A stretch of DNA of 59,551 nt, from assembly GCA_963514005.1 (NCBI GenBank), contig CAUPSL010000040.1, positions 1-59,551 of the forward strand, written 5' to 3'. Positions within the stretch are counted from its first letter, which is position 1; each line of letters starts with the position of its first letter. Below, piece after piece: positions 6,612 through 57,820 of this stretch. The DNA is from Raja brachyura. Lineage: Eukaryota. The notes beneath the pieces were generated by a model that did no database searches, was not told where the DNA came from, and was given only the letters and a program-made list of their open reading frames with translations. Both the position numbers and the translations under genes were made by a program.

Positions 6612-6626
6612 CTTCAAAATGTTCTT
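6612..6626 (-). CDS. Candidate micro-exon with strong donor, acceptor ambiguous (15 nt EEHFE, or 29 nt to 6640 ALQNQKNILK)
   Basis: TTTTGAAG|gtaagc consensus donor; AGs available giving 15, 29 or 35 nt. Confidence 0.35.
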
Positions 6627-6761
6627 CTGGTTTTGAAGTGCTAATGCTAAGCCTCGTGGATTAGAGCACGACCCAGCCTTCTGCTGGAGAAACCTGTTAG
6701 GTACATACCAGCATTTCTGCAAATAAGCGTCTAAATAAACAACAGCCAAACAAATAATCAC

Positions 6762-6788
6762 CTCGGTCTTTGTCTTTCAATTCGTCTC
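6762..6788 (-). CDS. Candidate micro-exon, 27 nt, (G)DELKDKDR
   Basis: tcacaacag|GAGACGAATTGAAAGACAAAGACCGAG|gtgatt. Confidence 0.5.
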
Positions 6789-6899
6789 CTGTTGTGACAT
6801 GATTGAAATGTAATTATGGTTTTCCTACTGTACTTCGTTTTCCGGGGAGATTGGATTTTTATACAGTCGGGAAAAGATGTATATTCAAATATATATATT

Positions 6900-7060
6900 N
6901 NNNNNNNNNNNNNNNNNNNNNNNNNNNNNNNNNNNNNNNNNNNNNNNNNNNNNNNNNNNNNNNNNNNNNNNNNNNNNNNNNNNNNNNNNNNNNNNNNNNN
7001 NNNNNNNNNNNNNNNNNNNNNNNNNNNNNNNNNNNNNNNNNNNNNNNNNNNNNNNNNNNN
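6900..7060. other. Assembly gap (161 N)
   Basis: Run of n, preceded by (AT)n. Confidence 1.
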
Positions 7061-7617
7061 ACGAACACCTTAGCATATATCAAAAAATACATTATGAGAT
7101 TGATAAAGCTACAAATCAAACGAGAAGATGAACCGTGTTTGGCGTTTAACCAGTTTTCTCACAGACGCAAAACAACTAATTCGTCAATCTTATCAACAGA
7201 TTGTTATGGGGGTATCTCCATCCAAAATATATGTGGGGATGTATTTTCAACTTGTGTGAACACATGTATTTATTGTGCTTATCTGCATGAGAACGACATT
7301 CGGCAGAGAAACAAATTCCAAGTACGCAGCGGGTTCTATGAAAGAAGACACGATGACTTGCTGGAAATAGAGTGTCGTTGGTTACTCGCAGGTGGAGTGA
7401 ATTAGTTTAGCACAGCATTATTTTCGACGCAGACATTGTGGGCCGAATAACCAGTGCTTGTGCTGTACTGCTCGATGTTCTAGGGTGAACTGCAAATAAA
7501 TTGAATGGATCGAAGTGGCCTAGATTTCTATTCGTTCATGAAACATATTACCGCTTCTCCTGCTTTCGATTTAGAAAGGTGGCCGTTGACCACAGTGGGT
7601 CAAATACATTTTCGTAC

Positions 7618-7653
7618 CATTCTTGAACCATATGTTTGGGAAAGTTATTTGAT
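7618..7653 (-). CDS. Candidate micro-exon, 36 nt, (N/D)QITFPNIWFKN (144 nt if an upstream in-frame acceptor at 7761 is used)
   Basis: aaatttag|ATCAAATAACTTTCCCAAACATATGGTTCAAGAATG|gtacga; peptide is not coil-like. Confidence 0.35.
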
Positions 7654-8375
7654 CTAAATTTACTGAAACTATAAAGTAATACTGAAAGAATGAATCAACA
7701 TAATCCCCAGCTCCTCCTGGAGACCGGTTATACATTGGTACTTTCCCGCCGATATTAATATCTACAAAATGAACTGGACGGTTGTCCAGTCGGGTAGTAT
7801 ACCAATGGGATACTATATAGGGTGTGAACCAGCATCTGCAGTTCTTTCCGACATAGTTCATGGGCGTGGTGAGCGTGTACTGAAAATACATAGCATGTGA
7901 AAGTTTATAGATAGGTAGACGTCCAAATCAGACCTCCAACAGCAGAACAGGACGCGACTCTGTTGGAAAGTTTTCGACGTCGGAGAGCGATGTTTGAAGC
8001 ATTATAGACATTTGAATGGCATAAACACACATTGTGCAGCATAAATAAAGTTGCCAAGCATAATAACGAATAGATTGGACACAACGATAAAAGGAAGTTA
8101 ACACGAACACGAGAGCGTAAATGTGCAGAACTACACCGAATTTGGCGAGAAAATTCATTAATATTACAATTGGTTTCAAAGTTTCATGAGCACCGGACGC
8201 TGTTCACAAGACTATATTGTCTTGATAGTATTGCAAAATATACAAGGGTAACGATATCAATAATTATAATGATTATCGACACACTCATTAAACAGACTTG
8301 GTCACACCGTTGTATCAGTGGAAATTAATGCCAGACGGTAATATGAGGAGTGGTCAATTAATGGTAATATTATAT

Positions 8376-11300
8376 CGTTGCGGACGTGGCGCCGACGGAG
8401 AAGAATCCGAAGCAAAGAAGTGGAAGCAAAATAACCGAATGGAAACGAAGCCGAAACGTCAAATAACCGAAGGAAACAAAGCCGAAACGCCAACTAACCT
8501 AAAGGGTGGGACGCGTAATGCAAACTAAACGAAAGGTCAGGACGCCTAAAAGCCAACTAACCGAAAGGCTGCAACACCAAAAACGAAACTCACTGAATAG
8601 CCGCTCTGCCGAAACACCACCTACCCGAAAGGCATGTCGTCTACAAGGAAACGACGTTACGTTGCCGGGGGGCGGGACATGTCAGCGATTGGTCCAGACG
8701 GCCGCGTCTATCATATCACTGTGCAGGGATCAACGTTCCCCCACAGCTCCACACCACCCGACCCACAGCCCGCGGAGAGTTGCCGTGGGAGAGTGGGGCC
8801 TCTCCCTCCGCACACCCACAGTGACTGATCACGATGCACCGCCATCGGACCCCAACCCCTCACTAGGGCGACTACCCCCACCGACCCCCGGATCCTGATA
8901 CCCGCACCGGGTGAGTCACCCCTACCCCGGCCGAGGTGACAGAAGGCGAGGGGGCACAGTAAATCGCTATTAAAACATTCGGGGGCACATGACAAGAGTG
9001 ACAACGAGCAACATTAAAGGTGTGAGCAGAGAGGAAGAGGGGTATAAAATGACAATAGAAGCAAGTGGTAGCAAGGTGAAAATTAATAGTGGCTGGCAGA
9101 CAAATCCAGGGGAAAAATCAAAAGGGGCCACTTGTCAACATAATTGTATAAAGGATAAAGTGTTGTAAAAGCAAGCCTGAAGGCTTTGTGTCTCAATGCG
9201 AGGAGCATTCGTAACAAGGTGGGTGAGTTGAATGTGCAGATAGCCATTAATGACTATGCTATAGTTCGGATCACGGAGACATGGCACCAGGCTGACCACG
9301 GCTGGGAGCTGAATATCCAGGGATATACAATATTCAGGAGGGATAGACGGAAAGGAAAAGGAGGTGGGGTAGCGTTGCTAGTGAGAGAGGAGATCAATGC
9401 AATAGAAAGGTAGGACATCAGCATGGAGATGTGGATTCGATATGGGTAGAGCTGCGAAACTCTAAGGGGCAGAAAACGCTAGTGGGAGTTATGTATAGGC
9501 CACCTAACTGCAGTATTGGAGTTGGTGATGGCATGAAACAGGAAATTAGAAGTGCGTGCAACAAGGGTAACACAGTTATAATGGGTGACTTAAATCTGCA
9601 TATAGATTGGGTGAATCAAATTGGCAGGGGTGCCGAGGAAGACGATTTCTTGGAATGTATGCGGGATAGTTTTCTAAACCAGCATGTGGAAGAACCAACG
9701 AGAGAGCAGGCTATTCTAGACTGAGCATTGAGCAATGAGGAAGGGTTAGTTAGCAGTCTTGTTGTGCGTGGCCCCTTGGGCAAGAGTGACCATAATATGA
9801 TTGAGTTCTTCATGAGGATGGAGAGTGACATAATTATGTCAGAAACAAGGGTTCTCAAATTAAACAAAGGTAACTTTTAAGGTATGAGCCGTGAATTGGA
9901 CAAGATAGACTGGCAGGTGAGTCTTAAAGGGTTGACAGTGGGTGTGCAATGGAAGGTATTTAAAGACTGCATGAATGAAGTACAACAATTGTTCATACCA
10001 GTTTGGCAAAATAATCAATCAGGGAAGGTGGTGCATCCATGGATAACGAGGGAAATCAGGGATAGTATAAAAGCTAAAGATGACGCATACAAATTGGCGA
10101 AAAAAACAGCCTACCAGAGGACTGGGAGAAATTCAAAATCCAGCAGAGGAGGACAAAGGGCTTAATTAGGAAAGGGAGTATAGATTACGAAAGGAAACTG
10201 GGAGGGAACATACAAATTGTCTGCAAAAGTTTTTTATAGATATGTGAAGAGATAGAGACTAGTTAGAACAAATGTTGGTCCCTTGCAGTCAGAAACAGGT
10301 GAATTGATCATGGTAAATAATTGAATAACTACTTTGGTGCTGCCTTCACTAAGGAAGACATAAGTAATCAGCCGGAAATAGCAAGGGCCCGGGGGTTAAA
10401 TAAGATGAAACTGAGTGAAATCCAGATTAGCCGGGAAGTGGTGTTAGGTAAATTGAATGGATTAAAGGCCGATAAATCCCCAGGGCCAGATGGTCTGCAT
10501 CCCATAGTCCACAAGGCGATAGCCACGGAAATAATGGATGCACGTGATAATTTTTCACAAGATTCTGGAGTAGTTCCTGAGGATTGACGATAGCTAATGT
10601 AACCCCGCTTTAAAAAAATAGGAGGGAGAGAGAAAGCGGGGAATTACAGACCAGTTAGTCAAACAACGGTAGTGGGGAAACTGCTGGAGTCAGTTATAAA
10701 AGATGGGATATCAGCGCATTTGGAAAGTGGTGAAATCAATGGACAAAGTCAGCATGGATTTACATAAGGTAAATCATGTCTGACGAATCTAATATAATTT
10801 TTTGAGGATGTAACTAGTGGAGTGGATAAGGGAGAACAGCCAATGGATGTTATATCTGGACTTTCAGAAGGCTTTCGACAAGGTCCCACATAAGAGATTA
10901 GCATATAAACTTAAAGCACACGGTATTGGTGGTTCAATATTGATGTGGATAGATAACTGGCTGGTAGACAGGAAGCAAAGGGTAGGAGTAAACGGGTCCT
11001 TTTCAAAATGGCAGTAAGTGAGTGGTGGGGTACCGCAAGGCTCAGTGCTGGGACCCCTGTTATTTACAATATACATTAATGATTTGGACGAGGGAATTGA
11101 ATGCAACATCTCCAAATTTTCAGACGACACCAAGCTGGAGGGTACAGTTAGGTGTGAGGATGACGCTAGGAGGCTTCAGGGTGATTTGGATAGGACGAGT
11201 GAATGGGCAGATGCATGGCAGGTGCAGCATAATGTGGATAAATGTGAGGTTATCCACTTTGGTGGAAAAACATGAGGGTAGACTATTATCTGAATGGTGG

Positions 11301-12097
11301 CAGATTAGGAAAAGGGGAGAAGCAACGTCACCTGGGTGTCATGGTACACCAGTCATTGAAAGTAGGCATGCAGGTGCAGCAGACAGTGAAGAAAGCAAAT
11401 GGTTTGTTAGCATTCATAGCGAAAGGATTTTACTATAGGAGTAGGGAGGTTCTACTGCAGTTGTACAGGGTTTTGGTGAGACCACACCTGGAGTATTGCG
11501 TACAGTTTTGGTCCCCAAATCTGAGGAAAGACATTCTTGCCATAGAGGGGGTTGAGAAAAGGTTCACCAGACTGATTCCTGGCATGTCGGGACTTTCATA
11601 TGAAAAAACACTGGATAGACTCGGCTTGTACTCAATGGAATTTAGATGACTGAGGGTGGATCTTATAGAAATGTACACAATTCTTAAGGGGTTGGACAAG
11701 CTGGATGCAGGAAGATTGTTCCCGATGTTGTGGGAATCCTGAACAAGGGGTCACAGTCTAAGGATAAGGGGGAATTCCTTTAGGACCGAGATGAGGAAAA
11801 CATTCTTTACACAGAGAGTGGTGAGTCTCTGGAATTCTCTGCCACAGAAGGTCGTTGAGGCCAGTTCATTGGTTGTATTCAAGAGGGAGTTGGATGTGGC
11901 TCTTGTGGCAAAACGGATCAGGGGGTATGGAGAGAAGGCAGGTACGGGATACTGATTTGGATGATCAGCCATGATCATATTGAATGGCGGTGCTGGCTCG
12001 AAGGGCCGAATGGCCTACTCCTGCACCTATTTTTCTATGTTTCTATGTTTCTATGTTTGCTTCGGCTTCTCGTCCGATGGCGCCACTTTCGGGTACC
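8376..12097. mobile_element. TIR-bounded non-autonomous DNA element (MITE-like) containing a nested CR1
   Basis: 8386-8416 GTGGCGCCGACGGAGAAGAATCCGAAGCAAA vs reverse complement of 12056-12086 GTGGCGCCATCGGACGAGAAGCCGAAGCAAA; ATAT on both outer flanks; ~30-bp subterminal CCGAA repeats at 8405-8635. Confidence 0.6.
9010..12055 (+). mobile_element. CR1 LINE, near-complete decayed ORF2 (APE endonuclease + RT) with 3' tail
   Basis: CLNARSIRNK, ITETW, GGGVALLV, IMGDLN, SDHN (APE); DFQKAFDKV, PQGSVLGP, FSDDTK (RT); (TTCTATGT)n tail; multiple stops. Confidence 0.95.
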
Positions 12098-12226
12098 ATA
12101 TTATACATAGCACGATGTTAAACTGGGGGTACTCCTAACCATGAATTCTTGCAAACGAAGCAATAGATATTTTGCGATTTACATTTCAATTTTAAAGTTG
12201 CTGCAAACTTTCAAATAATTCCTTAC

Positions 12227-12262
12227 TGGCTTTTTGTAGTTCTATTCTCAAATTCGATAATT
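12227..12262 (-). CDS. Micro-exon, 36 nt, (E)LSNLRIELQKA
   Basis: ctaacgtttag|AATTATCGAATTTGAGAATAGAACTACAAAAAGCCA|gtaagg. Confidence 0.8.
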
Positions 12263-12507
12263 CTAAACGTTAGTATAAAATAATGCATGTTAAAGGCAAC
12301 ATGTGGCAAGTACAAATGGAAAATTAACACGGATACACAGATTCAGTGCATAAAATACGAACTTAATAAATGAACAGTTAAACTATATTCATATGTCAAC
12401 AGAATTGTTTCTCCCGACCTATATCAACTCAAGTATTTATCGAGAAGCAATGCTAATAATCCAAGCAACATTGGAGGCTATCCACGAGGGTATTGCTGAT
12501 AATTTAC

Positions 12508-12525
12508 CTCCATTTTCAGCTCTGC
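12508..12525 (-). CDS. Micro-exon, 18 nt, (S/G)RAENG
   Basis: ctttattacag|GCAGAGCTGAAAATGGAG|gtaaat. Confidence 0.65.
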
Positions 12526-13774
12526 CTGTAATAAAGCACACGTAGCCAAATTGTTCACATATCTCATGATTATTTCATATATCATTCTGTATAATATGCA
12601 CGTTCTAAACACACGGAGAAAATGTGATATCTCGTCGGGAAGGATGTTGCTAATAGGAGCCACTTAGACAGCAAAGATAGTCGGCAAATGTATCGATTTT
12701 ACTTTGGGAAACAAACACCTTAGTGGTGTACTGAAACATGTTTGCATGTGTCTATTTAGTGCTGGAATCGTGCAGGACGTCAAATGTTGACGATAATTTT
12801 CACAATTAGCATATTAAGATACATGTGTGGTTAGTGGGTGAAATGGGTGCACATTAGGGTAGAACAGAAAAGAGAGAAGGGACGTTGGAGTGTCGGCGTG
12901 TTGCATAAAATTTTAGAATATCTCGGTCGATTGCACAATTCTGATATAACAATTTTCGAAAATAACATTGTAGCCTCAATGACAGTTCAAGACAAAGCTA
13001 ATATATGGTATAGTTCATTTTGACATTATTTTGACAATATTAGGTAACACCCCTAACGCCACTGTCGCACCCCCCTCCCCAACTTTCTTGACCCTACTGT
13101 GCTCTCGTGACTCCCATTATTGTGTCCTTTCTTCTCCATCAACCGCTCTTACCGTCCATTCCAATCCACCTACATACTTCCCTCTGGCTTCACATTTCAC
13201 TCATCCACTCTTCTTATTAGACACCCGTTTTCCTTGTTTACAATTCTGACTTTTGTCCACAAATTTGTATATCACCCCCCCCCCCCCCCCACCGCTCAAC
13301 TGTACCGATCGAACTGTTACTAGACTCTGTTCTACTTCCACCCCTTTCTCTGTTTTGTCCACCGCACTGATCTGTCTGAAGAGGCGTCAGATCCGAAACG
13401 CCGCACGACCTTGGCCTCCAGAGCTGCTGTCTGACGAGAGTTACTCAACTGCTCAGAACTCTTGTAAGCCAGACTCTACATCCCCCGGTGTCTTTCTTTA
13501 TCGTGCGAACAAATATCTATCGCTTGCATCCAATCCTAATTCTCTTTGCGAGATGTATTTAAATGTTTCGATATTAACTAACGGCGTTTTCTGTTGCAGA
13601 CTATTAAGCAGCTGTGTGCGGAAGATAGTTGTGCACCTGGATTTTTCATTATTTTACGTGTGCCAACGACGCTACGACATCGAAAACGGTCAAATATGTA
13701 ACGCTCTGGACTGTACAAACATGTTATGCAACTCGGAAGACCACAGAACTAGGAACATGCAGTGGACAATAACG

Positions 13775-15536
13775 GCAATTACATTAAAGAGCCAGAATAG
13801 ACATCTATCTGCAGAGCCAAAAGAGATGGGGGAGATATTGAACAATGTATTTTCACCGGTATTCACCAAGGAGAAGGATATTGAACTCTGTGCGGTAAGG
13901 GGAAAAAAGTACAGTAGCTATGGAAACTATGAGATTCAAAGAGGATGAAGTACTGACACTTTTGAAAAATATAAAGTGAATAATTCTCCAGGTCCTGACA
14001 GGATATTCCCTAGGACATTGAGGGAAGTTAGTGTAGAAATAGCAGGGGCTATGACAGAAATATTTCAAATGTCATTAGAAACGAGAATAGTGCCGGAGGA
14101 TTGGTGCGCATGTTGTTCCATTGTTTAAAAAGGGTTCAAAGAATAAACCTAGCAATTATAGACCTATTAGTTTGACGTCAGTGGTGGGCAAATTAATGGA
14201 AAGGATACTCAGAGATAATATATATAAGCATTTGGATAAACAGGGTCTGATCAGGAACAGTTAACATGGATTTGTAACTGGAAGGTCATGTTTGACAAAC
14301 CTTCTTGAATTTTTTGTAGAGGTTACTAGGGAAATTGATGAGGGTAAAGCAGTGGACGTTGTCTATACGGATTTCAGTAAGGCCTTTGACAAGGTTCCCC
14401 ATGGAAGGTTGGTTAAGAACGTTCAATCTTTAGGTGTTAATGGCAGAGAAGCAAGATGGATTCAACAGTGGCTGAATGGGAGATGCCAGAGAGTAATGGT
14501 GGATGGCTGATTGTCAGGTTGGAAGCCGGTGACCAGTGGGGTGCCCCAGCGGTCTGTGTTGGGTCCGCTGTTGTTTGTCATGTACATCAATGATCTGAAT
14601 GATGGGGTGAAAAATTGGATAAGTAAGTATGCAGATGATATTAAGATAGATGGTGTTGTGGATAATGAAGTAGATTTTCAAAGTCCACAGAGAGATTTGG
14701 GCCATTTGGAAGAGTGGGCTGAAAGATGCAGATGGAGTTTAATGCTGATAAGTGTGAGGTGCCACATCTTGGCAGGCTAAATCAAAATAGAACGTACATG
14801 GTAAATGGTAGGGAAGTGAGGAATGCTGTGGAACAGAGGGACCTAGGAATAAATATGCATAGTTCCCTGTAGGTGGAATCGCAGGTAGATAGGGTGGTAA
14901 AGAAAGCTTTTGGTGTGCTGGCCTTTATAAATCAGAGCATCGAATATAGGAGTAGGGACATAATGTTAAAATTGTACAAGTCATTGGTGAGACCAATTCT
15001 GGAGTATGGTGTACAATTTTGTTCGCCTTATTATAGGAAGGATATCAACAAAATAGAGAGGGTACAGAGGAGATTTACTAGAATGTTGCCTCGGTTCCAG
15101 CATCTATGTTACAGAGAAAGTTTGAACAAGTTAGGTCTTTATTCTTTGGAGCGCAGAAGGTTAAGGGGGGACTTGATTGAGGTCTTCAAAATGATGAAAG
15201 GGATAGACAGAGTTGACGTGGATTAGCTTTTCCCATTGAGGGAAGGGAAGAATCAAACAAGTGGGCATGACATGAGAAATATGGGACAGAAGTTTAGGGG
15301 TAACGTGAGGGGAAACCTCTTTACTAAGAGAGTGGTGGCTGTGTGGAATGAGCTTCCAGCAGAAGTGGTGGAGGCAGGATCGATTTTAACATTTAAAAGT
15401 AAAGTGGATAGCGTGGAAGGGAATGGAGGGGTATGGTCTGTGCAGATAGATGGGACTAGGGGAAAAGAAATGTTCGGCACAGACTGGAAGTGCCAAGAGG
15501 GCCTGTTTCCGTGCTGTAATTGTTATATGGTTATAT
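13775..15536 (+). mobile_element. CR1 LINE, 5'-truncated
   Basis: RT fragments 14292-14780, RPILEYGVQF, 3' tail TTATATGGTTATATG. Confidence 0.93.
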
Positions 15537-16619
15537 GTATAAAAGTAAATACAAAACTCAAATATCAATAATTTCTTCAATAGAATGCTGGAAAGAAATT
15601 GACATCGTTAACCACCTTCTTTCCAGCATTCAGACTTCCCTTCAGATTTTGATTACTCTCAATGATCATATTCGGTGATAAAATAAAATATGTGCATCGT
15701 ACTGTAGTGCATAAGCAATTCAGTGCTGGAGCGCACCAATAAATTTGCTGGCTGCAATTCGTTGGCAATTTCATGACTAATTGTGCAGACATTGTCTTCC
15801 TAACTTGACTGCAAATCCAACATTGAATACTTGCAACAGTACGGACGAACTTAACAACGGCACTTTACGCGGGCGATATACCGTATGAAACCACCATCAG
15901 ATGAAACGACATATTTATTGTATGCATAAAATATTAATTGTTATTAAATCCCTTGAGTTTTAATGTGTCCCGTGTCTCTCCCCAACAATCGTCTACATGC
16001 AGCATTATTTTGACTGAATTACCAAAATGGTATAAGTTAGCATATGTGGCAGAATAGATAATAGGTAGATAATTTGTTTCTCCAGATCAGTACTATGTGC
16101 ATTTATGTATTCAGAGATTGTATAATGCAGAATATTGCCGGTGTCAGGAAGCAGATGAGCTCCCACGCGATTTTGATTTGGTCTACATTCAAAAACGTAT
16201 CGGCCATCCAAAATGAATATGATTCTATCGTCACGGACTTAGTAAGTATGCGCGCAATTGAAAACAAATAACTATATGTGTTCCCCATCTAAAAACCATT
16301 GAACTACCGTGAAATCAATTATCTACGAAATGTCCAGTCTCTGGCGTTCAGGGAGGATAAACTTGTCCGGCACAATGACTCGAGATATAATGTTTTCAAC
16401 GCCGCAAAGCATGTCAAGACAAAATATAGAACAAAGTCAGAGGCCTTGTCAGATTTTGCGGAGAAGGCTTGATTGTGGCAAGATTGCATGCTATAACGGG
16501 ATACCAAATGAAGTCGATCAGTATCACTGGCAACATCGCATCCTCATCGAAGAGTGAACTGAAAGTCGGGAGGTGACATGACATCACTCCGCCCGGCAGG
16601 TCAGGATGGTTAGAATCAA

Positions 16620-19536: not shown

Positions 19537-19560
19537 TTATCAACTGATTCTCCAGTGTCC
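19537..19560 (-). CDS. Candidate micro-exon, 24 nt, (G)TLENQLI
   Basis: cgatcag|GGACACTGGAGAATCAGTTGATAA|gtatgt; weak pyrimidine tract. Confidence 0.35.
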
Positions 19561-19696
19561 CTGATCGTTGAGGCCGTGTCAATACTCTGATGCTTCCTTC
19601 TCGTCCTTTCAATAAAAAGTGTCAACAAATCAATGGAGTGCTTCAGTCTATGATCCGTTCATGTGTAGCCTTGATAAATAATTGCTGGTATCTTAC

Positions 19697-40413: not shown

Positions 40414-40509
40414 CTGAGGATAAATATTACCAGAGCAGTCAATATATTTGAACATTATACTTCTACTTTTGATATTTAGATTTTACATGATTTTTGGATG
40501 AAGCGAACG

Positions 40510-45647: not shown

Positions 45648-45665
45648 CTCCTCTGAATTCCCTTG
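45648..45665 (-). CDS. Micro-exon, 18 nt, (T)REFRG
   Basis: tgtttgcag|CAAGGGAATTCAGAGGAG|gtaaaa. Confidence 0.55.
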
Positions 45666-46420: not shown

Positions 46421-46456
46421 TGATATCAGCGAGAGCCTTCTTCAAGGTATCCACTT
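46421..46456 (-). CDS. Micro-exon, 36 nt, (E)VDTLKKALADI
   Basis: cattttag|AAGTGGATACCTTGAAGAAGGCTCTCGCTGATATCA|gtaagc; paralogous to 34654-34689. Confidence 0.85.
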
Positions 46457-46499
46457 CTAAAATGTTTGAAAAGAAAACATCAATAGTTGCATTCCCTTA

Positions 46500-46800
46500 C
46501 CAGGTTATGGGGAACCAAAGATCAGAGCGCATAAGTTTAAGGTGAAGGGAGAATTATGTAATAGTAACCAGGGGGCTTTCTTGGCGAGCAAACAGTGGTG
46601 GGTGTATGGAGCGAGTTGACAGAAGAGGTAGTGGAGGCAGGGACTATTACAAAGTTTAAAATAAAGCTACATGATTAGGACAAATTTTGGATGGATATGG
46701 GCCAAATGTCGTCAGGTGGGACTCGTGTCGATGGGACATGCTGGTTGGTGTGGGCAAATTGGGCCAAAAGGCCTATTTCCAGGCTGAATTACTCCATGAT
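46500..46800 (+). mobile_element. CR1-like 3' fragment
   Basis: agtggtgggtgtatggagcgagttg..gaggtagtggaggcagg; homologous to 15330-15390. Confidence 0.65.
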
Positions 46801-47908
46801 TAAAGTTTTTTTAAGCGTGTCACAATTAATTAATTGAATGGGTGCTACATTTTGTTCCGCTCAAATGCTTTCGTCATATGCAACGTTTTTTTAGAATAAT
46901 TAGTATAATATAATTCGCTTGTACGTAAACATAGAATAGTGAAGCACAGGAACAGGCCTTCCGCTCACAATGCGTTGTGCATTCAGAAGCTATTTCGTGT
47001 TTTGGTTTATTGAGCTATGCTCTATTTAGTTTCCACTAACAGAACGGCACTGTCGAACGTCGCTAGACTACGTTCGTGGTTTGGTCTATTGCAACATTTA
47101 GGGAATAGTGTCCAGATAAATTCAATAACAGAAATATGAGCTAAATGCAGTTTTGGTGATAAATAATAAATGACAGGAAACTCGGAATTGAGATATACAT
47201 GGTGAGTGTGTAGGACTGCAGGTGCAGGGTTACATCGAAGAAGGAAACAAAATGCTGTAATAACACAGCGGGACAGAAGCATCTCTGTCGAGAAGGAATG
47301 GGTGACGTTTCTGGTCGAGACCCTTCAGGAACCTAGCGTCAGGGACATCCATGTGGAGAGATTTGAAAAGCTCGTGGCATCCAATTAAGTATATCCTGCA
47401 CATTCTACCAAATGCCATTTTAAATACAGACGAAGAATGTCTGCTTTCTTTTAAGAAACATGCAAATTGCAACGAACCGTCGATGGTTCCGACACTGTCT
47501 ATGGTCCATTTTGAAATAGAAAGCTACGGATGTTCATGGTTTCATTAGTTGTATTAGTCATGGAGGTGCTGATTCCTGAAAGAGCGGAGAGGATTTCCTT
47601 TAGCAAAGCGTGTTCGTTACTCGAGGAAAAGAAAAATGCAAATTTCGCTAAATATATATATTAAATAATTATTTGTTTAATTTCGAGCAACGTCCTGTTA
47701 ATGTTTCTTGTTTTACGGTGTGGCAGTGTCAATATGTGTTGATGTTTCTACTTGGAAAGAGCTTCAATAAAATAAATTGCGGTCAGATCAACACAAAATA
47801 GCTTAACGTTAATCAAAACAGAATCGAATTGCGTATAGATGCGTCAAAAGCCGTGTTTGATTTAAATTATATCCGGAAATCAAATACAAAATAATGCATG
47901 TCACTCAC

Positions 47909-47935
47909 CTTGTGCTTTTTCTATAAGCGTTCTTT
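47909..47935 (-). CDS. Micro-exon, 27 nt, (E)RTLIEKAQ
   Basis: ttcctgtcgtcgttcacag|AAAGAACGCTTATAGAAAAAGCACAAG|gtgagt. Confidence 0.8.
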
Positions 47936-47940
47936 CTGTG

Positions 47941-49677
47941 AACGACGACAGGAAATAACAACGTTTCCTCTCTCCACTTAGGTCCTATGACGGTCTAGGT
48001 TTTTTAGCATTTCGGCATTTTCGAATTTAAATTCAGATATTTTTGTTATTTTTGTTATTTGTGTTATTTTTGCTTTTCAGATAATGTGTAGATGTATAGT
48101 GGCATTATATTTGGAAAGTAAAGCAAGACTATTGCGATCGAGATTATTGAGCGTTTCTATTACAGTCGATTATCGTAACATAGATATTGATTTAACTGAT
48201 TGGATTTGATTTGTCCAAGGGGCGAAAATATATATTACTGAAGAGAAGATAACCTTCAATATTCCCTGCTATGATTCTTTTGTCCAAAGAAAGATGGCAA
48301 ACTTCATTTGGAGGGGTTGTGAAGCGGGGGCATGATTCAGACGATAAATTATATTGAACAAGCAATTGAATCATCAAATCAAAGAAGGCTGTAGATCGTG
48401 TACAGGAAAACGCTGGCGTAAATGGTGAATGTTGCGATGTCATAGTCATACAGTCATAGAGCGGGACAGCATGCAAACAGGTCCTTGGACCCAATCTGCA
48501 CACACAGGCCAACATATGCCAAACTGCCTGCGTTTGGTCCACATCCCCCCAATCCGGTCCTATCCATCTAGCACCTTGGCCAACTTTTTCCGTCCACCCG
48601 CCACGTTTTATGTGATAACTTGAACCCTCAGATTCCTATTATTTTTATGTTGGCATAATTCATTTATTGTGTCAATAATTGGGCCATCTACATCTAAAAT
48701 ACAAATCACATTCTTGAACAGTTTTTTTTTTAACTGGAGTGTACCAAAACGTAGGTTTTTCACCGTATCTTGTTAGTCGTCACAATAAACATAAACTAAA
48801 TTCAAGCTCGACTGCCACAAATTTTCCCTTTCTTGTCCTAATCTTGTTGTGCAACGTATAACTTTGCAACTTATTTTCGTATTTTTCGAATTCATATCAT
48901 ACTTTTCATGTTTCTATTTACGTATTGTGATACATGCTGAAGCACCATAAAAGGAGAAAATATATTGCCTGGGGTGCTAACGAAGATAACGACGACAGGA
49001 AATAATAACGTTTCCTCTCTCCACTTAGGTCTTATGACGTCTAGGTTTTTTAACATTTCGGCATTTTCGAATTTAAATTCCGATATTTTTGTTATTTTTG
49101 TTATTTTTGTTATTTTTGCTTTTCAGATAATGTATAGTGGCATTATATTTGGAAAGTAAACCAAGACTATTGCGATCGAGATTATTGTGCGTTTTAATTA
49201 CAGTTGATTATCGTAACTTTCTTATTGATTTAACTGATTGTATTTGATTTCTCCAAGGAACGAAAATATATATTACTGGAGAGAAGATAACCTTCAATAT
49301 TCCCTGCTATGATTCTTTTGTCCAAAGAAAGATGGCAAACTTCATTTGGAGGAGGTGTGGGGCGGGGCATGATTCAGACGCTAAATTATATTGAACAGGC
49401 AATTGAATCATCAAATCAAAGAACGCTGTAGGTCGTGTACAGAAAAACGCTGGCTTAACTGGTGAATGTTGCGATGTCATAGTCATAGAGTCATAGAGTG
49501 GGACAACATGCAAACAGGTCCTTGGACCCAATCTCCACACACAGGACAACATATGCCAAACTGCCTGCGTTTGATCCACATCCCCCCAATCCGGTCCTAT
49601 CCATCTAGCACCTTGGCCAACTTGTTCCGTCCACCCGCCACCTTTTATGTGATAACTTTACCCTCAGATTCCTATTA
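47941..49677 (+). repeat. Local direct duplication of ~700 bp (47941-48641 and 48988-49677)
   Basis: Colinear high identity, reflected in twin ORFs 48192-48542/49307-49579 and 48429-48623/49466-49903; includes unique intronic sequence and a SINE-like fragment. Confidence 0.95.
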
Positions 49678-49822
49678 CATATTTTCCCTTCACATTAAAC
49701 GCATGTCCTCTGCTCCTCGATTCACCTACTCTAGGCAACAGACTCCATGCATCTATCGCCGAAATATTTTACTATGCTATGTGATGCGATTTGATTTTTA
49801 TGTCAATAGAAAAATGGCTCAC

Positions 49823-49858
49823 CCATTGCTTTCACGGTCTTTTCCAGTTCGTCAAATT
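49823..49858 (-). CDS. Micro-exon, 36 nt, (E)FDELEKTVKAM
   Basis: tttttatttcgcag|AATTTGACGAACTGGAAAAGACCGTGAAAGCAATGG|gtgagc. Confidence 0.85.
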
Positions 49859-49974
49859 CTGCGAAATAAAAATGTTCGAACATTTACTTGGCCGACTATA
49901 TGATAAAAAAAAATATTTCTAAAATAACACGGACGGATATCACACATTGATATAACACGCACGGATATCGAGAT

Positions 49975-50530
49975 ACAAGATACATGTATGTGTCAGATGT
50001 GGCAGTTGGCACAGTGAAATGTGATCACCATACAGCCGTATAATCAAAATAAAGAACTCAACACACGATGGAGTTCAACATAAAACATCCCCACACAGAA
50101 GATTCAAAAGTTTCCCACTGTGAGGGAAGGCACCAAAGTCAGTCATCTCCCTCTAATATTTCTGATGTTCACCCGTGGTCGGGGCCTCCCCGAGCCCTCC
50201 GCAGTCGCCACTACGGACGGCCCGATGTTCAGCTCCGTTTGCCGGGATGATGGAACTCGGACGTCGGGACTGGATGACATCCTCAGCTGCCTGGACATCC
50301 GAGTCGGGCACCTCCGACCGGAGTCCGCGGCTCCCAAAGTCCGCAAGCCGCGCTGGGCGGAGATGCAACGCTGGCGGCCCTCGGCAAAGGGCCCCAGGAC
50401 TCCACGATGTTGTTCAGCGCTGCGCTGGGAGCTCTCCCAAACCCCAGCTCCGCGATATTGGAGCAACGGCCCAACGCCCCGGAGCACCAAACGACGACCA
50501 GGTAGGCATCGCCTAACGGCGACTCAAGGA
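49975..50530 (-). mobile_element. Short GC-rich non-autonomous retroposon-like element
   Basis: GC-rich body, (TGTATCT)-like tail on the minus strand; architecture resembles 1148-1620. Confidence 0.55.
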
Positions 50531-50559
50531 GGCATCAAAAAAAGGCTTCAGATATATTA

Positions 50560-52335
50560 CTTTATACATTAATATACCAAGAAATACCAGAAATAATACG
50601 AGAAATCCTACAAACAGAATGGAACAGAATCCCATGTTCTTTTGCATATTAAATATTGTGGGCGGTATTGTGGTACAGTAAAGTTAGTCCCTGGTGAGAT
50701 AGGAGTTTACACGATTAATGGCCTCTGGGAATAAACTTCTTTTCAACCTCTCCGTTCTCACAGCATGGCAGCGGAGGCGTTTGCCTGACCGTAGCAGTTG
50801 GAACAGTCCGTTGCAACGGTGTAAGGGGTCTCCCATTATCGTATTGGCTCTGGAGTTGCACCTCCTGATGTATAGTTACTGCATAGGGGCGACATAAGTT
50901 CCCATAGTGCGTTCGGCCAACGCACTACTCTCTGCAGAGCTTTCTTGCCCTGGGCAGAGTAATTCCCAAACCAGATTGTAATATTCCGGCAAGATGTTTC
51001 CACAGCCCCTGAGTGGAAGCACTGGAGAATCCTCGGAGAATTTCGTCAATTGCCCGAGGTGGTAAAGGCGCTGCCTTGCCTTACTCACCAGTGCTGCAGC
51101 GTGTGATGTCCATGTCATATCCTCAGAGATGTGGACTCCCAGGTATTAAAAACAGCTCACTCTATCCACAGTATCCCCAGTTATGCTCAATGGTGTGTAC
51201 GTCCTCGGATGATGTGCCCTGCACGATCAGATCCTTAGTTTGTATGATGTTCAAGAGGAGGCTGTTGTCCTGACACCAGAGTGCCAGATCAGCCACCTCC
51301 TCCCGGTACGCCTTCTCATCGTCGTCTGAGATCAGGCCCACCACCACAGTGTCATCAGCAAACGTGATAATCGAGTTGGAGCTGAACCTAACCACACAGT
51401 CATGTGTGTACAGGGAGTACAATAGGGGGCTGAGGACGCAACCTTGGGGATCCTGAGCTCAGTGTGAGGGACTTCGATGTATTCCCTCCATCTTCACTAC
51501 CTGGGGTCTGGAGGTGAGAAAGTCCAGGGCCCAGGCACACAGGGGGGTGTTGAGCTCTAATTCCAGTAGCTTCTCGGCCAGTCTTGTGGGGACTATCGTG
51601 TTGAAGGCTGAACTGAAGTCTATGAACAGCATCCTCACGTAGCCCCCCTTCTGGCTGGCAAGTTGAGAGAGAGCGGTGTGCAAAACGTGGGAAACCGCAT
51701 CGTCCGTGGATCCGTTCTGACGGTTTGCGAATTGTAACGGTTCCATGTTGCGAGGGAGAAAGGCGCAGATGTGTTTCTTCACCAGCCTCTCAAAGCATTT
51801 CATGACTACCGAGGTAAGGGCCACCGGACCGTAGTCATTCAGACAGGCTGGTGAGGCATTCGTTGGTACAGGTACAATGGTGGATTTTTTGAAGCAGGCA
51901 GGGACTACGGACTTGTCCAGGGAGAGGTTGAATATTGTAGTGAGCACCGGAGATAGCTGCGTAGCACAGAAAAAGTACTCGCCCCGAGATGCCATCGGGG
52001 ATTGCAGCTTTCCTCGTGTTCACCCGTGTCAGAGTCCTCCTCACATCGTGCTCGGACAGCGAGAATGTGTGAGCATTCCTCCCTGGACTATTGTCGATAG
52101 TCGGCAGACCTGGTGTGGTGTTGCCCATCTCGAAACGAGCGCAAAATGAGTTCCGGTCATCAGCTAGGGAGTTGCCGGCACTTGTGGATGAGGGTGGGGT
52201 GCTCCGGTAGTTGGATGCAGTCCGTAGCCCTTGCCACAGGTGTCAGGTGTCCTGCTGCTCCATCTGTGACTGCATCTTGTCCCTGTACCTCATTGTTGCG
52301 GCCTTCACCGCCCTTCGCAGTCGGTAGGACTCTAT
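50560..52335 (-). mobile_element. Rex1/Babar-clade LINE, decayed
   Basis: LNDYGPVALTSVVMKCFERLV, STDDAVS, YVRMLFIDFSSAFNTI, FADDTVVVGLISDDDEKAYREEV. Confidence 0.92.
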
Positions 52336-52419
52336 CTTGAATACGGCCATGCTTCTAGTGCCAGGCCGGAGTTGTTGGCAGCGGTGCGTGCATTCAAGGC
52401 AACACGAAGGGACCTGTCT

Positions 52420-52625
52420 ACCCTGGGTTGCTCCTCCAATTTCCGTTTGGCTTCACTCGGGCAATGGAGGAGGCCGAGCACAGAAAGATCAGTGTTGGAA
52501 TGGGAAGGGAAATTAAAATGTTTTGCAGCCCGGAGATTAGGTACGTCCAGAGAGACTGTGTGACGGTGTTCACCGAAACGATAGCCCAAACTACGTTTTG
52601 TCTCGCCGATATATAAGAACTTTTA
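52420..52625 (-). mobile_element. Penelope-like GIY-YIG endonuclease fragment
   Basis: YIGETKRSLGYRFGEH..AKHFNFPSHS..RKLEEQ. Confidence 0.8.
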
Positions 52626-53092
52626 TCAAGATGTTCCTCTTCGGTAATCGTTTCGTTTATATGCTCCATTTTTCTATATTCAGTGTGTTCAATAATAATA
52701 CTGAGCTGTAGCACGAATTGAATTTTACATGATTCATGGAATTACGGCGTGCAGGGGTTGCCTAGATTTTATGGCTCATAATCCTTGAATGCCACCTAAG
52801 ACATTAATGTATTACTAGTTATATATAGATTAGATATATACAATATATATTACAATACAATATATATATATATATCATTATTGACCCTTATCTGGTAGTG
52901 TGTTCCAGAATAAATGTATTCAATTCCAATCAATAATTTGAACACCAAACGTAGCCAGCAAGTAACTTATGTCAGTAAACAGCCAATGATCAAGCATGTT
53001 CATCCAGTAAGTGATCTGTGGGTACAAACTGGCTCACTGCACAAATACAGTTTAATTCAAACATTATTTTGGAATAAAATGAAAAGAAATAC

Positions 53093-53113
53093 CTTTTCTC
53101 GTAACTGGTCCGC
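53093..53113 (-). CDS. Micro-exon, 21 nt, (G)GPVTRK
   Basis: gtttggcag|GCGGACCAGTTACGAGAAAAG|gtattt; moderate splice sites. Confidence 0.45.
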
Positions 53114-54339
53114 CTGCCAAACATTTTTATAAAATACATATATGAAAAATATGTTTTTGTGATTGACCGACAGAATACCCATTCGTGATATGTTTGGCAG
53201 CATAGGATTCAACATCTGAAATTGGGTGTTAATGAAATCAAACTATTAATTTATTTTACTTTTACGATTATTCCAATCTGCTCATAGTTATATGCAGGAT
53301 GTGTCGATAAATTTTAATCCCGCCGCGTTTTATCACTGCAAACTCTTTGGTCTAATCATTGTCAAGTTACCTTGTTAATTTTATAGTATAGTACCATAAG
53401 TGAATGTGATTATGTATATGAATTCCGGAAGAAAAGCAGTAAGTGGGGTACCATCATATTAATCTTGCAATGAGGTGTTGTTTATTTGCCACTGTTAAAT
53501 GACATTACGCACGGAGTCTTCAGTTTTTTTTGTGCAAAATTCGAAATATTACTTTTTCCCATTAGCACTGTGCTCCACAACTCCCATCTGATTTCGATTC
53601 AACCGTCTGGTGAATTAGAAGAACAGGTGAATAAGAGTGAAAGTGTTTACGAAATCCATAGTTGTTCCATACGGATGAATCCAGACGTCCTTGAAACAAC
53701 CTTAACAATTTCCGGATATCTTCCTCTGTCTAAAATCGATTGATTTGAATGAAAACCAGCACAAAGTGAAATGGAAAGTTAAGGACCAGCTGACCCCCGA
53801 GGTGCCGTGCTTTTCACCAATTGTCAATTTATTTCGTATAATTTGCGCTACATGGTGATAAATATTGGCTGGCAAAAGTAACTATAAAGGGACAGAACAA
53901 TGTATCGGAACTCATCGGCCCATGCCCAATCATATTTAACTCGGGGTCCCAAGCTAAGTTATACTTTTGATTTGTATGTTTCCTCGAGTAAAAATAAATC
54001 GAACGTGAGGCCTCGGGAGAAGGCTCTGGGCTCCTAAACTGACCCCCAACAGAAAAAAGCAACGGCTCATCCTATTGCAGTAGAAATTCTACACTCCAAT
54101 CTATCCACAATCATGTTCATCAAAACATCACCTCTGTTCCCTCTTAACGTGTCAACTCGTATATACTGCACACTGTTGTTTGGACTATCAACAACTGATT
54201 TGAAAACACAATAGGTATACGTACGATAGGCTTTCCAAAACAATAGCCGCTAAGCACAATTAACTTTGGAGCACAATAAGAACTACTACTTTTTTAAAAC
54301 GCCGCCAATTGAGGCGGCGCGGTCGTCTGGCAAGCTGAC

Positions 54340-57300
54340 CTCTACCGGGCTGAGGCCAGGCGGCAGAACTCTCAGACACCTCACCTAAATATCCTTGGAC
54401 ATTGACCCCACAGACGAGCACCAGACCTATAATATCAGACACCATTTCCGATGTTGTTACTTCAGGCTCTCTGCCATCTAAAACATACAAAGGTATCGTA
54501 CCCACGCCCTGCGCGGCCTGATTTCATATTCTCGCCCAAAATCCACAAACATAATTGTTCTAGCAGACATATTGTTTTTGCTTGTTCATATCCAGCCGAA
54601 TTAATTTCCTCATGCCTCTAATCCTTTCTATCCATAATTGTACAATCCCTCCTATGCCCGTCAACTATGTCCATTACCTATGTCCGTCACACGCTCTTCG
54701 TTTCTTCGACGACATATTTCCCAGGCCACCACTCCTACATCTTTAGCATGGATGTCCAGTCACTCTACACGTCTATCCCCCACCAGGATGGTCTAACTGC
54801 ACTCTGTTTCTTCTTCGACCGCAGCCCCCGTCAAGTTCCATCTACGAATACCCTTCTCCGCCCAGCAGAGCTTGTCCTAAACCTCAACAACATATACTTC
54901 GACTCCACTCACTTCCTCCAAATGCAAGGCATAGCGATGTGTACTCGCATGGGTCTCAGATATACCTGCCTGTTTGTAAGGTACGGCAAAAAATCACTGT
55001 TCTAAACATACACTGCTCCTATCATTGAACTCTACTTCCGCTACAATGACGATTGCATGCATGCTGCCTCTTGCATCCGTGCAGAACACACTGACTTCAA
55101 CAACTTCCAATGTTCTAGTTTCCAATGTTCTATCGATTCAGGATGAGTTCTTGTGTATTTGAGGGTAGCTAATGGTATCCCACTTTTTAAGAACGAAGGA
55201 AGACAGAAACGAGGACATTATAGATTAGTTAGCTTGATATCGGTTGTGGGAAGATGTTGGAGTCAATTATAAAATATCAAATAGCGACACATTTCTATAG
55301 AAGTAACAGGATCGGTCTGAGTCAGCAGGGACTTACGAAGGAGAAATCATGCTTGATTAATCTTCTGGAATTTTATGAGGGTGTAATCCGGAAAATGGAC
55401 AAGGGATAGTCAGTGCATGTTGTGTACCTGGATTTTCAGAAAACATTTGATAAGGTTCCACATAGGAGATTAGTGGGCAAATTTAGAGCACATGGTATTG
55501 GGGGTAGAGTACTGACATCGATAGAAAAGTGGTTGGCAGACAGGAAACAAAGGGTAGGGTTAAACGGGTCCCTTTCAGAAAGTCAAGTAGTGACAAGTGT
55601 GGTATGGCAAGGCTCGGTGTTGGGACCGCAGCTATTTACAATATACATCAATGATCCAGATGAAGGGATTCAAAGTAACATTAGCTAATTTCCAGATGAC
55701 ACGACGCTAGGTGACAGTATGAAGTGCGAGGAGGATGTTATGAGGATGCACGGTAACATGGACAGGTTGGTGCGTGGGCGGATATATGGCAGATGCAGTT
55801 TAGTGTGGATATCCACATTGGTCGCAAAAACAGGGAGGCAGATTATTAACTCAACCGTGTCAAGCTTCGAAACTGGGAAGCAAACAGACATCTGGGTGTC
55901 CTTTGTTGATCATTCACTGAAAGAAAGCATGCAGGTATAGGAGGCAGCGAATAAAGCTCATGGTATGTTTGCCTTCATAACAAGCCGGGTTGTGTACATG
56001 AGCAAAGAGGTCCTTCTGCTGATGTACCGGGCGCTAGTGAGACCACGCGTTGAGTATTGTATGCAGTTTTTGTCTCCAAATATGAGGAAGGACATCCTTG
56101 CTAATGAAGGAGTGCAGCGTGGGTTCACGGGTTAATTCCTGGGATGGCGGTTCTGTTATATTTGGATAGGATGGAGAGGCTGGGCTTGTATGCTCTGGAA
56201 TTTAGAAGGATGAGAGGGGATATTATTGAAACGTATACAATTATTAAGGGGTTGGATACGCTGGAGGCAGGAGACATGTTCCCGATGTTAGGGGATTCCA
56301 GAACCAAGGTTCACAGTTTAAGAATACGGGACAGGCCATTTAGAACGGAGACGAAGAAACGCGTTTACACCCATAAAGTTGTGCATCTGTGGAACGTTGT
56401 ACTTCAGAGGGCAGTGGGGGCCAATTCGCGTTCAAGCGAAAATTCAAGAGAGCTCTTGAAGATAGTGTATTCAGAGGATGTTGTGAGAAGGCAGGAACGA
56501 GGTACTGAATGTGGATGAACAGCCATGATCATAGTTCATGGTGGTGCTGGCTCCAAGAGCCGAAAGGCGTACTCCTGCAGCTATTGTCTATTATCAACTC
56601 AGGAATAATTTTCATCCTGCACTCAATTTCACTTGGACCATATACGACATCTCCTTACCATATCTGGATCTCACCATCTCCCTCGCAAGAGGCAGACTAT
56701 TAACGGACATCTACTGCAAGCCTCCTGACTCCCATTGCTTTCTTGACATCTCTTCCCACCATACTTCTGTAAAGTCTCTATCCCCTACTACCAATTCCTC
56801 CGTCCATGTCGTATCTGCGCCCAGAATGATGTGTATGTACTGGTTCATCGGAGATGTTCTCATGGTTTAGGAAACCGGCTTTCCCTCGTCCATTTTAGAT
56901 GAGGCACTTTCTTGAGTCTCCTCGATATCAAGCAGCTCCGCTCTAGTTTCCCCTCCCCCCATTAGAAACAAGGACAGAGTCCCCATTGTCCTCACCTTCC
57001 ATCCCAACAGCTATCCCATACAGCATACAATCCTCCAAAACTTCGGCCACCGACAACGGGATTGCACTACTGGCCACATCTTCCCATCTCCACCCTTTTC
57101 TGCTTTCTGCCAAGACCGTTGCTTCCGCAACTCCCTGGTCAACGAGTCCCTTCCCAACAAAGCAATCTCTCCCCAGGTACGTTCGCCTGCTTCTGCAGGA
57201 AATGCAACACCTGTCCGTTTAGATCCCCCCTCGACTCCGTCGAAATACTCCGACAGTCTTTTGAGTTGAGGCAGAGGATCAAGCACGTTTTGCAACCTCG

Positions 57301-57742
57301 TCCACTGTATTCGCTGTTCTAGCTGTCAATATCTGTACATCGGCGAGACTAAGCGCAACCTCATCTCCCGATTGTTCAGCACGTTAAACCCCCGCCCATT
57401 CCCAATCGCTCAATTCTGGCCTGGGCCTCCTCCATTGTCAGAGTGAGGCCCAGCGCAAAGTGGCGGAAAATCACCTCATATTTCTCTTGGGTAGCTCACA
57501 CCCCAGCGGTATGAACATTGATTTATCTAACTTCAAGTAACCCTTGTATTCCCTCTCTCTCCATCCCCATCGCCCTTCCCAGTCCTCCCACCAATATTAC
57601 TCTCTTAGACAACATTCTATACCTGTCCCGCCTACTCCTCAAACATCAATCTGAAGAAGGGTCTCGACCCGAAATGTCACCATCCCTTCTGTCCACAGAT
57701 GATGCCTGCCCCCGCTGAGTTTCTCCAGCATTTTCTGTCTAC
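54340..57742 (+). mobile_element. Penelope-like element (RT + GIY-YIG) split by a CR1 (parts ~54340-55108 and ~56593-57742)
   Basis: SMDVQSLYTSIPH, GIAMCTRMG, FRYNDDC | NFHPALNFTW, YCKPPDSH, CFCRKCNTC, LYIGETKR; 3' end ctgaagaagggtctcgacccgaaa. Confidence 0.9.
55145..56592 (+). mobile_element. CR1 LINE nested in Penelope
   Basis: YLDFQKTFDKVPH, QGSVLGP, GLYALEFRRMRGD; tail ctattgtcta. Confidence 0.92.
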
Positions 57743-57796
57743 TGCGTTACAAAATTCTGTACAAAACATTTATGTTGGCAATATATATTTACTCAC

Positions 57797-57820
57797 CGGT
57801 GCCTCTCAAGGATTCTATTT
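57797..57820 (-). CDS. Micro-exon, 24 nt, (E)IESLRGT
   Basis: tttttgcttag|AAATAGAATCCTTGAGAGGCACCG|gtgagt. Confidence 0.75.

Follow-up and report, generated by a model that had tools for sequence, protein, structure and literature searches.

The question raised by the 59,551-nt stretch of Raja brachyura DNA analysed here (contig CAUPSL010000040.1, hereafter the window) is whether the very short segments scattered over its minus strand are exons and, if so, what protein they encode. A first-pass annotation had proposed a hidden minus-strand gene composed of symmetric phase-1 micro-exons and encoding a coiled coil, and this proposal is borne out by paralog conservation, reading frame and periodicity. 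The window micro-exons are real, as their splice sites and frame are conserved in paralogous copies of the locus. About 20 of them appear to belong to a far larger gene, and we favour, with modest confidence, the view that it encodes a long coiled-coil rod and is a member of a soluble, B30.2-headed family of cartilaginous fishes, in which no RING domain, immunoglobulin (Ig) domain or membrane anchor was found. The scale proposed at first, about 24 exons, was thus too small, since the window contributes about 20 of at least 88 exons of a single array copy within a multi-megabase cluster.

The window is the entire contig (G000:C89), with no flanking sequence on that contig. It is composed of AT-rich vertebrate DNA with numerous remnants of long interspersed nuclear elements (LINEs), and about a quarter of it is high-copy repeat within the sequence compared. 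A scan of every AG..GT pair across the window located 23 minus-strand segments of 15-36 nt each, 603 nt in total, between positions 57,820 and 6,612. All 23 have AG/GT ends and are stop-free when joined in order in phase 1. None of them lies in high-copy repeats, in agreement with the earlier placement of the exons in unique DNA, and the coverage of 1-3 found there corresponds to paralogous copies. Of the roughly 24 exons and 639 nt given previously, 23 exons and 603 nt were thus located; one more, unlisted exon of 36 nt, implied by the total of 639 nt, was not found.

The segments were compared with paralogous copies that are collinear with the window, intronic DNA included: copy A, on the plus strand of sequence C25 near 30.28 Mb (~79% identical to the window), and copy B, on the minus strand of C25 near 29.42 Mb (~72% identical). 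Further matching copies are present on contig C1394 and at C25:31.36-31.40 Mb. The plus-strand array of C25:29.77-30.13 Mb, with the window included, is referred to as A0. The splice scores used are based on approximate frequencies. The features of the window are as follows.

1..59551, minus strand: whole contig G000:C89, the presumed missing middle of the plus-strand array C25:29.77-30.13 Mb, at gap 29,963,013
57797..57820, minus strand: micro-exon, 24 nt, phase 1, strong AG/GT; C1394 homolog intact at 36 nt, an in-frame length change
53093..53113, minus strand: micro-exon, 21 nt, weak splice sites; intact in C1394, the sole aligned copy
49823..49858, minus strand: micro-exon, 36 nt, intact in copies A and B
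47909..47935, minus strand: micro-exon, 27 nt, intact in copies A and B
46421..46456, minus strand: micro-exon, 36 nt, intact in copies A and B
45648..45665, minus strand: micro-exon, 18 nt, intact in copies A and B
43961..43987, minus strand: micro-exon, 27 nt, intact in copies A and B
42513..42539, minus strand: micro-exon, 27 nt, weak acceptor, intact in copies A and B
40378..40413, minus strand: micro-exon, 36 nt, intact in copies A and B
39994..40017, minus strand: doubtful first-pass candidate, 24 nt; GG in place of the donor in copy A, acceptor score -3.8
38391..38411, minus strand: doubtful first-pass candidate, 21 nt; GT donor lost (AT in copy A, GC in copy B)
37230..37250, minus strand: partly supported micro-exon, 21 nt; copy A intact at 18 nt, copy B 17 nt with donor lost
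34654..34689, minus strand: micro-exon, 36 nt, intact in copies A and B
28365..28388, minus strand: micro-exon, 24 nt, intact in copies A and B
26638..26664, minus strand: micro-exon, 27 nt, intact in copies A and B
26434..26460, minus strand: micro-exon, 27 nt, intact in copies A and B; similar to one block of the rod in named coiled-coil-B30.2 proteins
21118..21150, minus strand: micro-exon, 33 nt, intact in copies A and B
19697..19714, minus strand: partly supported micro-exon, 18 nt; copy B intact, copy A without donor
19537..19560, minus strand: partly supported micro-exon, 24 nt; copy A intact, copy B without donor
12508..12525, minus strand: micro-exon, 18 nt; three tandem 21-nt homologs at C25:31.395-31.397 Mb, AG/GT intact in two of three
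12227..12262, minus strand: micro-exon without paralog support, 36 nt; homolog at C25:31.397 Mb interrupted by a stop and without a donor
6762..6788, minus strand: last supported micro-exon of the window, 27 nt; intact homolog at C25:31,397,196
6612..6626, minus strand: first-pass candidate, 15 nt; donor real and conserved at C25:31.3976 Mb, acceptor doubtful and not conserved

The aligned copies preserve 16 of the 23 segments intact (the one starting at 12525 in two of its three tandem homologs). Another three (starts 37250, 19714 and 19560) are preserved in one copy but have lost the donor in a second, and four (40017, 38411, 12262 and 6626) have no paralog support. Altogether, at least one paralogous copy of 19/23 segments retains AG/GT, a length that is a multiple of three (3n) and a phase-1 frame without stops, and the length changes of intact homologs are all multiples of three (24 to 36, 21 to 18 and 18 to 21 nt). 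The warning that weak candidates had been picked by eye was therefore right for about four exons.

Such picking raises the possibility that the segments are chance AG..GT pairs. The raw numbers of such pairs in the window are in line with it: 325 on the sense strand (121 of them 3n) against 323 on the antisense strand (127 of them 3n), with no excess on either strand or of 3n lengths, so that the scan alone proves nothing. The strand asymmetry expected in the first-pass annotation appears when splice strength and conservation are taken into account. Among pairs of mean splice score of at least 2 that are conserved, there are two on the antisense strand and 14 on the sense strand; 10 of the latter have 3n lengths, and every one of these 10 is open in phase 1. 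When entire arrays are compared without any requirement on frame, the conserved sense pairs of 3n length number 62/76 (A0 versus B), 43/52 (A0 versus A) and 33/36 (A versus B), against 4/14, 3/16 and 3/4 antisense pairs, respectively. The 3n excess among the sense pairs is highly significant (binomial p 7e-18), while the antisense pairs show none. The 3n sense pairs are open in phase 1 in 62/62, 42/43 and 33/33 cases in the same comparisons; in the other two frames, only 19 and 27 of the 62 A0-B pairs are open. Additionally, exon borders of a sister gene described below coincide with gaps between isoforms of named proteins. A chance origin, which we regard as hardly credible for the set, is refuted for most exons by conservation, frame and the survival of all 31 comparable exons (see below).

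Another explanation that has to be weighed is that the array of the window arose as a copy of a functional gene, has no promoter and is decaying. Exon identity between A0 and B barely exceeds that of introns (0.79 vs. 0.78), the first duplicated exon of A0 has no acceptor and is one base short, and a start exon was looked for and none was found. However, of the exons defined from copies A and B, all 31 that could be aligned are intact in the window's copy despite ~20% divergence (three were unaligned), whereas the survival of a random AG and GT pair is ~0.33-0.42. Phase 1 is free of stops, and the ratio of nonsynonymous to synonymous substitutions (dN/dS) is below 1 in this frame: 0.74, 0.59 and 0.64 for A0-B, A0-A and A-B (Fisher p 0.029, 0.013 and 0.021). 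It is lowest in the phase-1 frame, and the values for the other frames are not significant. Thus, decay is very improbable, and the near equality of exon and flank identity indicates instead that the protein evolves fast.

The window most likely fills the gap at C25:29,963,013 inside the plus-strand array A0, because it is collinear with paralogs on both sides of this gap. Contig C1394 aligns with the right end of the window as well as with the last bases ahead of the gap, the homolog of window exon 6788 at C25:31,397,196 is followed by a homolog of the first exon past the gap, and copy B is collinear across both sides. With the window included, 88 exons of A0 are conserved in copy A or B; they encode 827 residues, rich in K, E and L and with 10 prolines, and both figures are lower bounds for the window's copy. 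Contig C1394 itself (L001-L004), which is unplaced, probably fills another gap, C25:30,269,314, in copy A. A further assembly gap is present at C25:30,425,309.

Similar exons occupy C25:29.25-29.75 Mb in minus-strand orientation; on the plus strand, they run from 29.76 Mb to 30.73 Mb or beyond. After a crude composition filter, there are 365 distinct sense and 90 antisense candidates. Past 30.73 Mb, C25 was covered by sampling of 14 tiles, 12 of which contain micro-exon candidates, reaching 31.58 Mb; the cluster therefore extends over at least 2.3 Mb. Among 386 cluster candidates, 160 are 27 nt long, 97 are 36 nt and only 14 are 21 nt, the length typical of chicken BG genes, one of the analogies drawn for this locus at first; in the window, 21-nt exons are 3/23. 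Exon blocks are tandemly duplicated inside the arrays, up to six or seven times, and A0 and A themselves resemble a tandem duplication inside one continuing array. The rod lengthens through such tandem exon-block duplication. Micro-exon blocks at C25:29.256-29.30 Mb and 29.64-29.66 Mb, with up to six or seven repeats of 80-97% identity, reflect ongoing growth of the rod.

The order of the exons is consistent with the coiled-coil nature of the product. Hydrophobic residues peak at positions 2, 5, 9 and 12 of the 36-nt exons and at position 4 of the 27-nt exons, so that a pair of 36 and 27 nt makes three heptads, and the alternation of these two lengths is the commonest adjacency. The periodicity of the rod peaks at 3.55 residues. 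The observed power was reached by none of 300 exon-order shuffles in A0 or B and by 3/1000 for the 23 exons of the window; the share of hydrophobic residues at a and d positions, a weaker measure, was reached by 18 and 2 of 300 shuffles. Most exons encode 9 or 12 residues, and their natural order holds the 3.5-3.6 periodicity better than shuffled orders do. As only 3/23 window exons correspond to a whole heptad, the skipping of a single exon is safe for the frame but shifts the register. The suggestion that length could be tuned by skipping any exon holds insofar as isoforms of the sister gene's relatives differ in frame by 6 and 9 residues, but the idea that any exon could be lost without cost is not supported.

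What the rod may be attached to is indicated by a sister array, B'. A Pfam SPRY match (E 6.9e-12) was found in an open reading frame (ORF), C25:29,612,368-29,612,997, which lies 1.9 kb past the last micro-exon of B' and is an intact phase-1 PRY-SPRY exon; the advice to look for B30.2 exons in the flanks thus proved fruitful. A second B30.2 copy, 70% identical to the first, is located at C25:31,326,521 behind a homologous array. The closest named relative of the B' B30.2 domain is Narcine bancroftii XP_069775385 (63%), and the longest Narcine isoform, XP_069775384, matches 18 B' micro-exons in order over 170 residues. The B' start exon at C25:29,746,236 encodes the same first two residues as the Narcine protein. 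With this start exon, the 18 matched rod exons and the B30.2 exon, B' appears to be a complete gene, made of a two-codon start exon, micro-exons and B30.2, with no Ig, transmembrane, RING or B-box part found. Among the Narcine isoforms (XP_069775384-390), some are short of a 6-residue block, others of a 9-residue block that coincides with a single B' exon, or of the two exons at the start of the rod; 9-residue isoform gaps are also present in catshark and chimaera relatives. All of these are database gene models. The single-chain predicted model of the Narcine protein is helical over residues 3-196 (mean predicted local distance difference test score, pLDDT, 53.8).

A quick tree built from 153 B30.2 domains places 12 rows together in a long-branched clade (Shimodaira-Hasegawa-like approximate likelihood ratio test, SH-aLRT, 100) whose placement is unsure because several rows are long. 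Its named members are all from cartilaginous fishes, consistent with the earlier view that the protein is lineage-specific, and are 200-460 residues long. In RefSeq they are called 'zinc-binding protein A33-like' (Narcine bancroftii XP_069775384-390), 'TRIM39-like' (Scyliorhinus canicula XP_038672306-310), 'TRIM58' (Callorhinchus milii XP_042191566-568) and 'TRIM69-like' (Leucoraja erinacea XP_055510696). Pfam analysis of eight clade proteins detected SPRY/PRY only and no RING, B-box, TRIM_CC or Ig; these names, drawn from B30.2 similarity, overstate TRIM membership. Three more clade B30.2 exons are located on G000:C24 at 15.7 and 17.7 Mb (L169, L170 and L171), and one C24 member is nearly identical to a Leucoraja record, which indicates a batoid genome close to skates. 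In the genome as a whole, most of the 150 scored B30.2 matches lie on C25 (18-43 Mb) and are ~30-35% identical to the B30.2 of the cluster, which points to a large expansion. Clusters of 1277- and 1579-residue chordate PRY-SPRY proteins in the Atlas (scores 0.92 and 0.88) are a lead only; an Atlas search with the rod alone was uninformative (best score 0.77), and a same-length search with the B30.2 exon yielded none among 16 candidates.

The window gene is likely a member of this shark-and-ray family, because it lies in a cluster of similar genes, two arrays of which end in B30.2. The array of the window has the exon style and a duplicated block in common with B', although it is not its ortholog: the first block of A0 is ~72% identical to the last exons of B'. 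The positional pattern of phase-1 18-, 24-, 27- and 36-nt exons is common to the window array and the chondrichthyan coiled-coil-B30.2 clade. Window exons match profiles derived from the array that ends in B30.2 (of 5000 shuffles, 7 and 78 were as good), and the 36-nt exons of the window, taken as a set, match the 36-nt profile.

The first-pass annotation considered the rod a stalk or tail and advised a look for Ig and transmembrane exons upstream. One way to retain this would be to assume a cytoplasmic tail or stalk of a butyrophilin- or BG-like membrane protein whose Ig and transmembrane exons fall into an assembly gap, such as that at C25:29,750,751, directly upstream of the array. As in butyrophilins, phase-1 micro-exon heptads are followed by a B30.2 exon, and the best match of this exon among solved structures is BTN3A1 (E 5e-25), then TRIM21. 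However, a scan of 1.6 Mb for Ig, PRY, SPRY, lectin, RING and NACHT motifs gave 0 matches, although such patterns are insensitive for diverged domains, because they missed the B30.2 exon later found by Pfam (the Ig pattern also flags 17/153 B30.2 proteins of the tree set). The Pfam scan covered 149/151 candidate head- and tail-region ORFs and one RRM control, out of 904 low-copy ORFs. In 150 ORFs taken from the candidate head regions, no V-set domain was present, and the 150 best V-set matches (of 1128 candidates) all fall outside C25:29-32 Mb. No transmembrane-like exon was found in the arrays and no large conserved head exon between the copies, and a search for signal-peptide-like start exons in the arrays gave five weak candidates only. 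Together with the two-codon start of the complete sister gene and the rarity of 21-nt exons, these results make a membrane-bound protein improbable.

A family link to B30.2 for the window's own copy is less direct than for B', and several results weigh against it. No start exon was identified for A0. The 1.6 Mb, the window and C1394 contain only one B30.2 exon, that at 29.612 Mb; none stands directly behind arrays B, A0 and A, and B ends beside an RBM4-like gene. In both places examined, the window-type array is located downstream of a B30.2 exon. The window's own exons gave no match to a named protein; none of 2769 candidates proved to be a long relative of the Narcine rod in a search that is weak in itself; and the similarity of window-copy exons to named rods exceeds that of shuffles for only 4/6 proteins, and slightly. 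A Leucoraja relative of L171 has a hydrophobic, signal-like N-terminal stretch, and therefore not every clade member need be cytosolic. The immune role considered below is based on domain kinship, fast evolution and location, and not on an assay.

Some of these results can be accommodated by assuming that the window gene encodes a head-less rod of the same family, with a short last exon or a 3' extension that skips B30.2, and acts as a structural or decoy coiled coil, for which the soluble BG 'zipper protein' is a precedent (PMC4046983). Besides the lack of B30.2 behind the three arrays and the repeated position of window-type arrays after B30.2 exons on the same strand, A0 and A have the exons that precede B30.2 without the B30.2 stretch itself, and a conserved acceptor without a donor is located past the last exon that they share. 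The latter, near C25:30,124,265 (homolog near 30.4185 Mb), is followed by an almost invariant stretch and is a candidate short last exon. On the other hand, A0 and A look like a tandem duplication in one array whose phase-1 exons go on in the direction of the 31.327-Mb B30.2 exon, the nearest downstream same-strand clade B30.2, 1.2 Mb from the window's array, and sense candidates occur in 9/10 sampled tiles on the way there. We consider a head-less rod possible but clearly the less probable option.

The 3' end of the window array can thus be read in three ways: as part of a giant transcript that extends to 31.327 Mb, as the short end of a head-less rod, or as an extension skipping B30.2. The first would make A0 (with the window), A and array E one transcription unit of ~1.6 Mb with ~300 micro-exons, spliced in phase 1 and encoding a coiled coil of ~3,000 residues (~450 nm) capped by the 31.327-Mb B30.2; this is a rather doubtful, tentative proposal. 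If true, such a unit would be among the most exon-rich vertebrate genes, with nearly all exons shorter than 40 nt, and its alternative starts, ends and skips could yield a ladder of molecular rulers.

Several sequences in the vicinity may be relevant to the ends of these genes. Strong donors at C25:29,776,529 and 29,783,564, conserved in three copies (homologs 30,180,893, 30,190,281, 29,581,718 and 29,573,050) and without a matching 3n acceptor, are candidate first or untranslated exons of window-type genes. An RBM4/RBM14-type RNA-binding gene (L073:6933-7445, minus strand; C25 near 29.231 Mb) located ~25 kb behind array B on the same strand may serve as a synteny anchor.

Within the window, a 24-nt candidate at 29695-29718 (minus strand), absent from the first-pass annotation, is conserved in copy A in a repeat-like block and is probably due to chance. 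A 15-nt AG..GT segment on the opposite strand (46290-46304, plus) scores strongly for splicing in each of the three aligned copies and may be an antisense exon or a chance pair. Segments 48092-48626 and 49130-49663, ~1.04 kb apart and 92-94% identical, represent a recent local duplication within one intron. Remnants of reverse-transcriptase ORFs (RVT_1) are located at 2532-3650, 31324-32466 and 51459-52019, and many LINE 3' ends with short tandem tails occur elsewhere.

If the window gene encodes a B30.2-headed rod, as we favour, the rod would dimerise or oligomerise and could, as a spacer or scaffold, expose B30.2 heads to ligands inside the cell. The protein might then act in a TRIM-like manner without a ligase of its own, probably in innate immunity, as suggested by the kinship of its B30.2 to BTN3 and TRIM21, fast evolution, copy expansion and the B30.2-rich contig. 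The length of the rod would be set by gain, loss and skipping of exons, with the heptad register as a constraint.

As almost all its coding exons are shorter than 40 nt, this multi-megabase cluster is nearly invisible to standard annotation. The B30.2 clade was found here only in chimaeras, sharks and rays, and its members have been filed as TRIM proteins or butyrophilins, though no RING or Ig was found in them. Short members of the family are already known as automatic annotations, while the cluster and the clade are apparently undescribed in the literature searched: our search found no description of either, most subscription journals and supplements being outside its coverage. The cluster offers a natural test of coiled-coil growth by exon duplication under two rules, the 3n frame and the 36+27-nt heptad register, and bears on the splicing of long runs of micro-exons in kilobase introns.

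Among known systems, chicken BG genes have many small exons with a split first codon that encode a heptad coiled coil, vary in exon number between paralogs and form a tandem cluster; they have signal, Ig-V and transmembrane exons, 13-36 exons mostly of 21 nt, one heptad each, and no B30.2 is described there (PMC5938342, PMC4046983). The window array likewise builds a coiled coil from split-codon micro-exons, but window-type exons are mostly of 27 and 36 nt, one copy has at least 88 of them, the searches gave no Ig or transmembrane exon, and the cluster contains B30.2. Butyrophilins (BTN3A1 and its kin) resemble the sister genes at C25:29.612 and 31.327 Mb in having heptad exons followed by a PRY-SPRY exon; they contain Ig domains, a transmembrane segment and only a few heptads (PMC5938342), in contrast to the cluster, with at least 88 rod exons and no Ig or transmembrane exon found. 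Judged by the features that define BG genes, butyrophilins and TRIM proteins, the array departs from them in that 21-nt exons do not predominate, no Ig or transmembrane parts were found, and no RING or B-box was found, respectively. With PRY-SPRY TRIM proteins (TRIM21, TRIM39, A33) it would have a soluble coiled coil with B30.2 in common; unlike TRIM proteins of the RING, B-box and coiled-coil (RBCC) type, there is no RING motif in the 1.6 Mb and no RING, B-box or TRIM_CC in clade proteins by Pfam, and the rod is micro-exonic and far longer. Enterophilins of guinea pig are soluble proteins in which a long leucine-zipper rod ends in B30.2, and they are mammalian and butyrophilin-derived. They have been linked to SNX1 (PMC13749957). 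The chondrichthyan coiled-coil-B30.2 models combine a coiled coil with a B30.2 domain of this clade, are free of RING, B-box and Ig according to Pfam, and have isoform gaps of 6 or 9 residues; compared with these proteins of 200-460 residues, the window's copy, which is not their ortholog and whose link to B30.2 we infer, encodes a rod of at least 827 residues.

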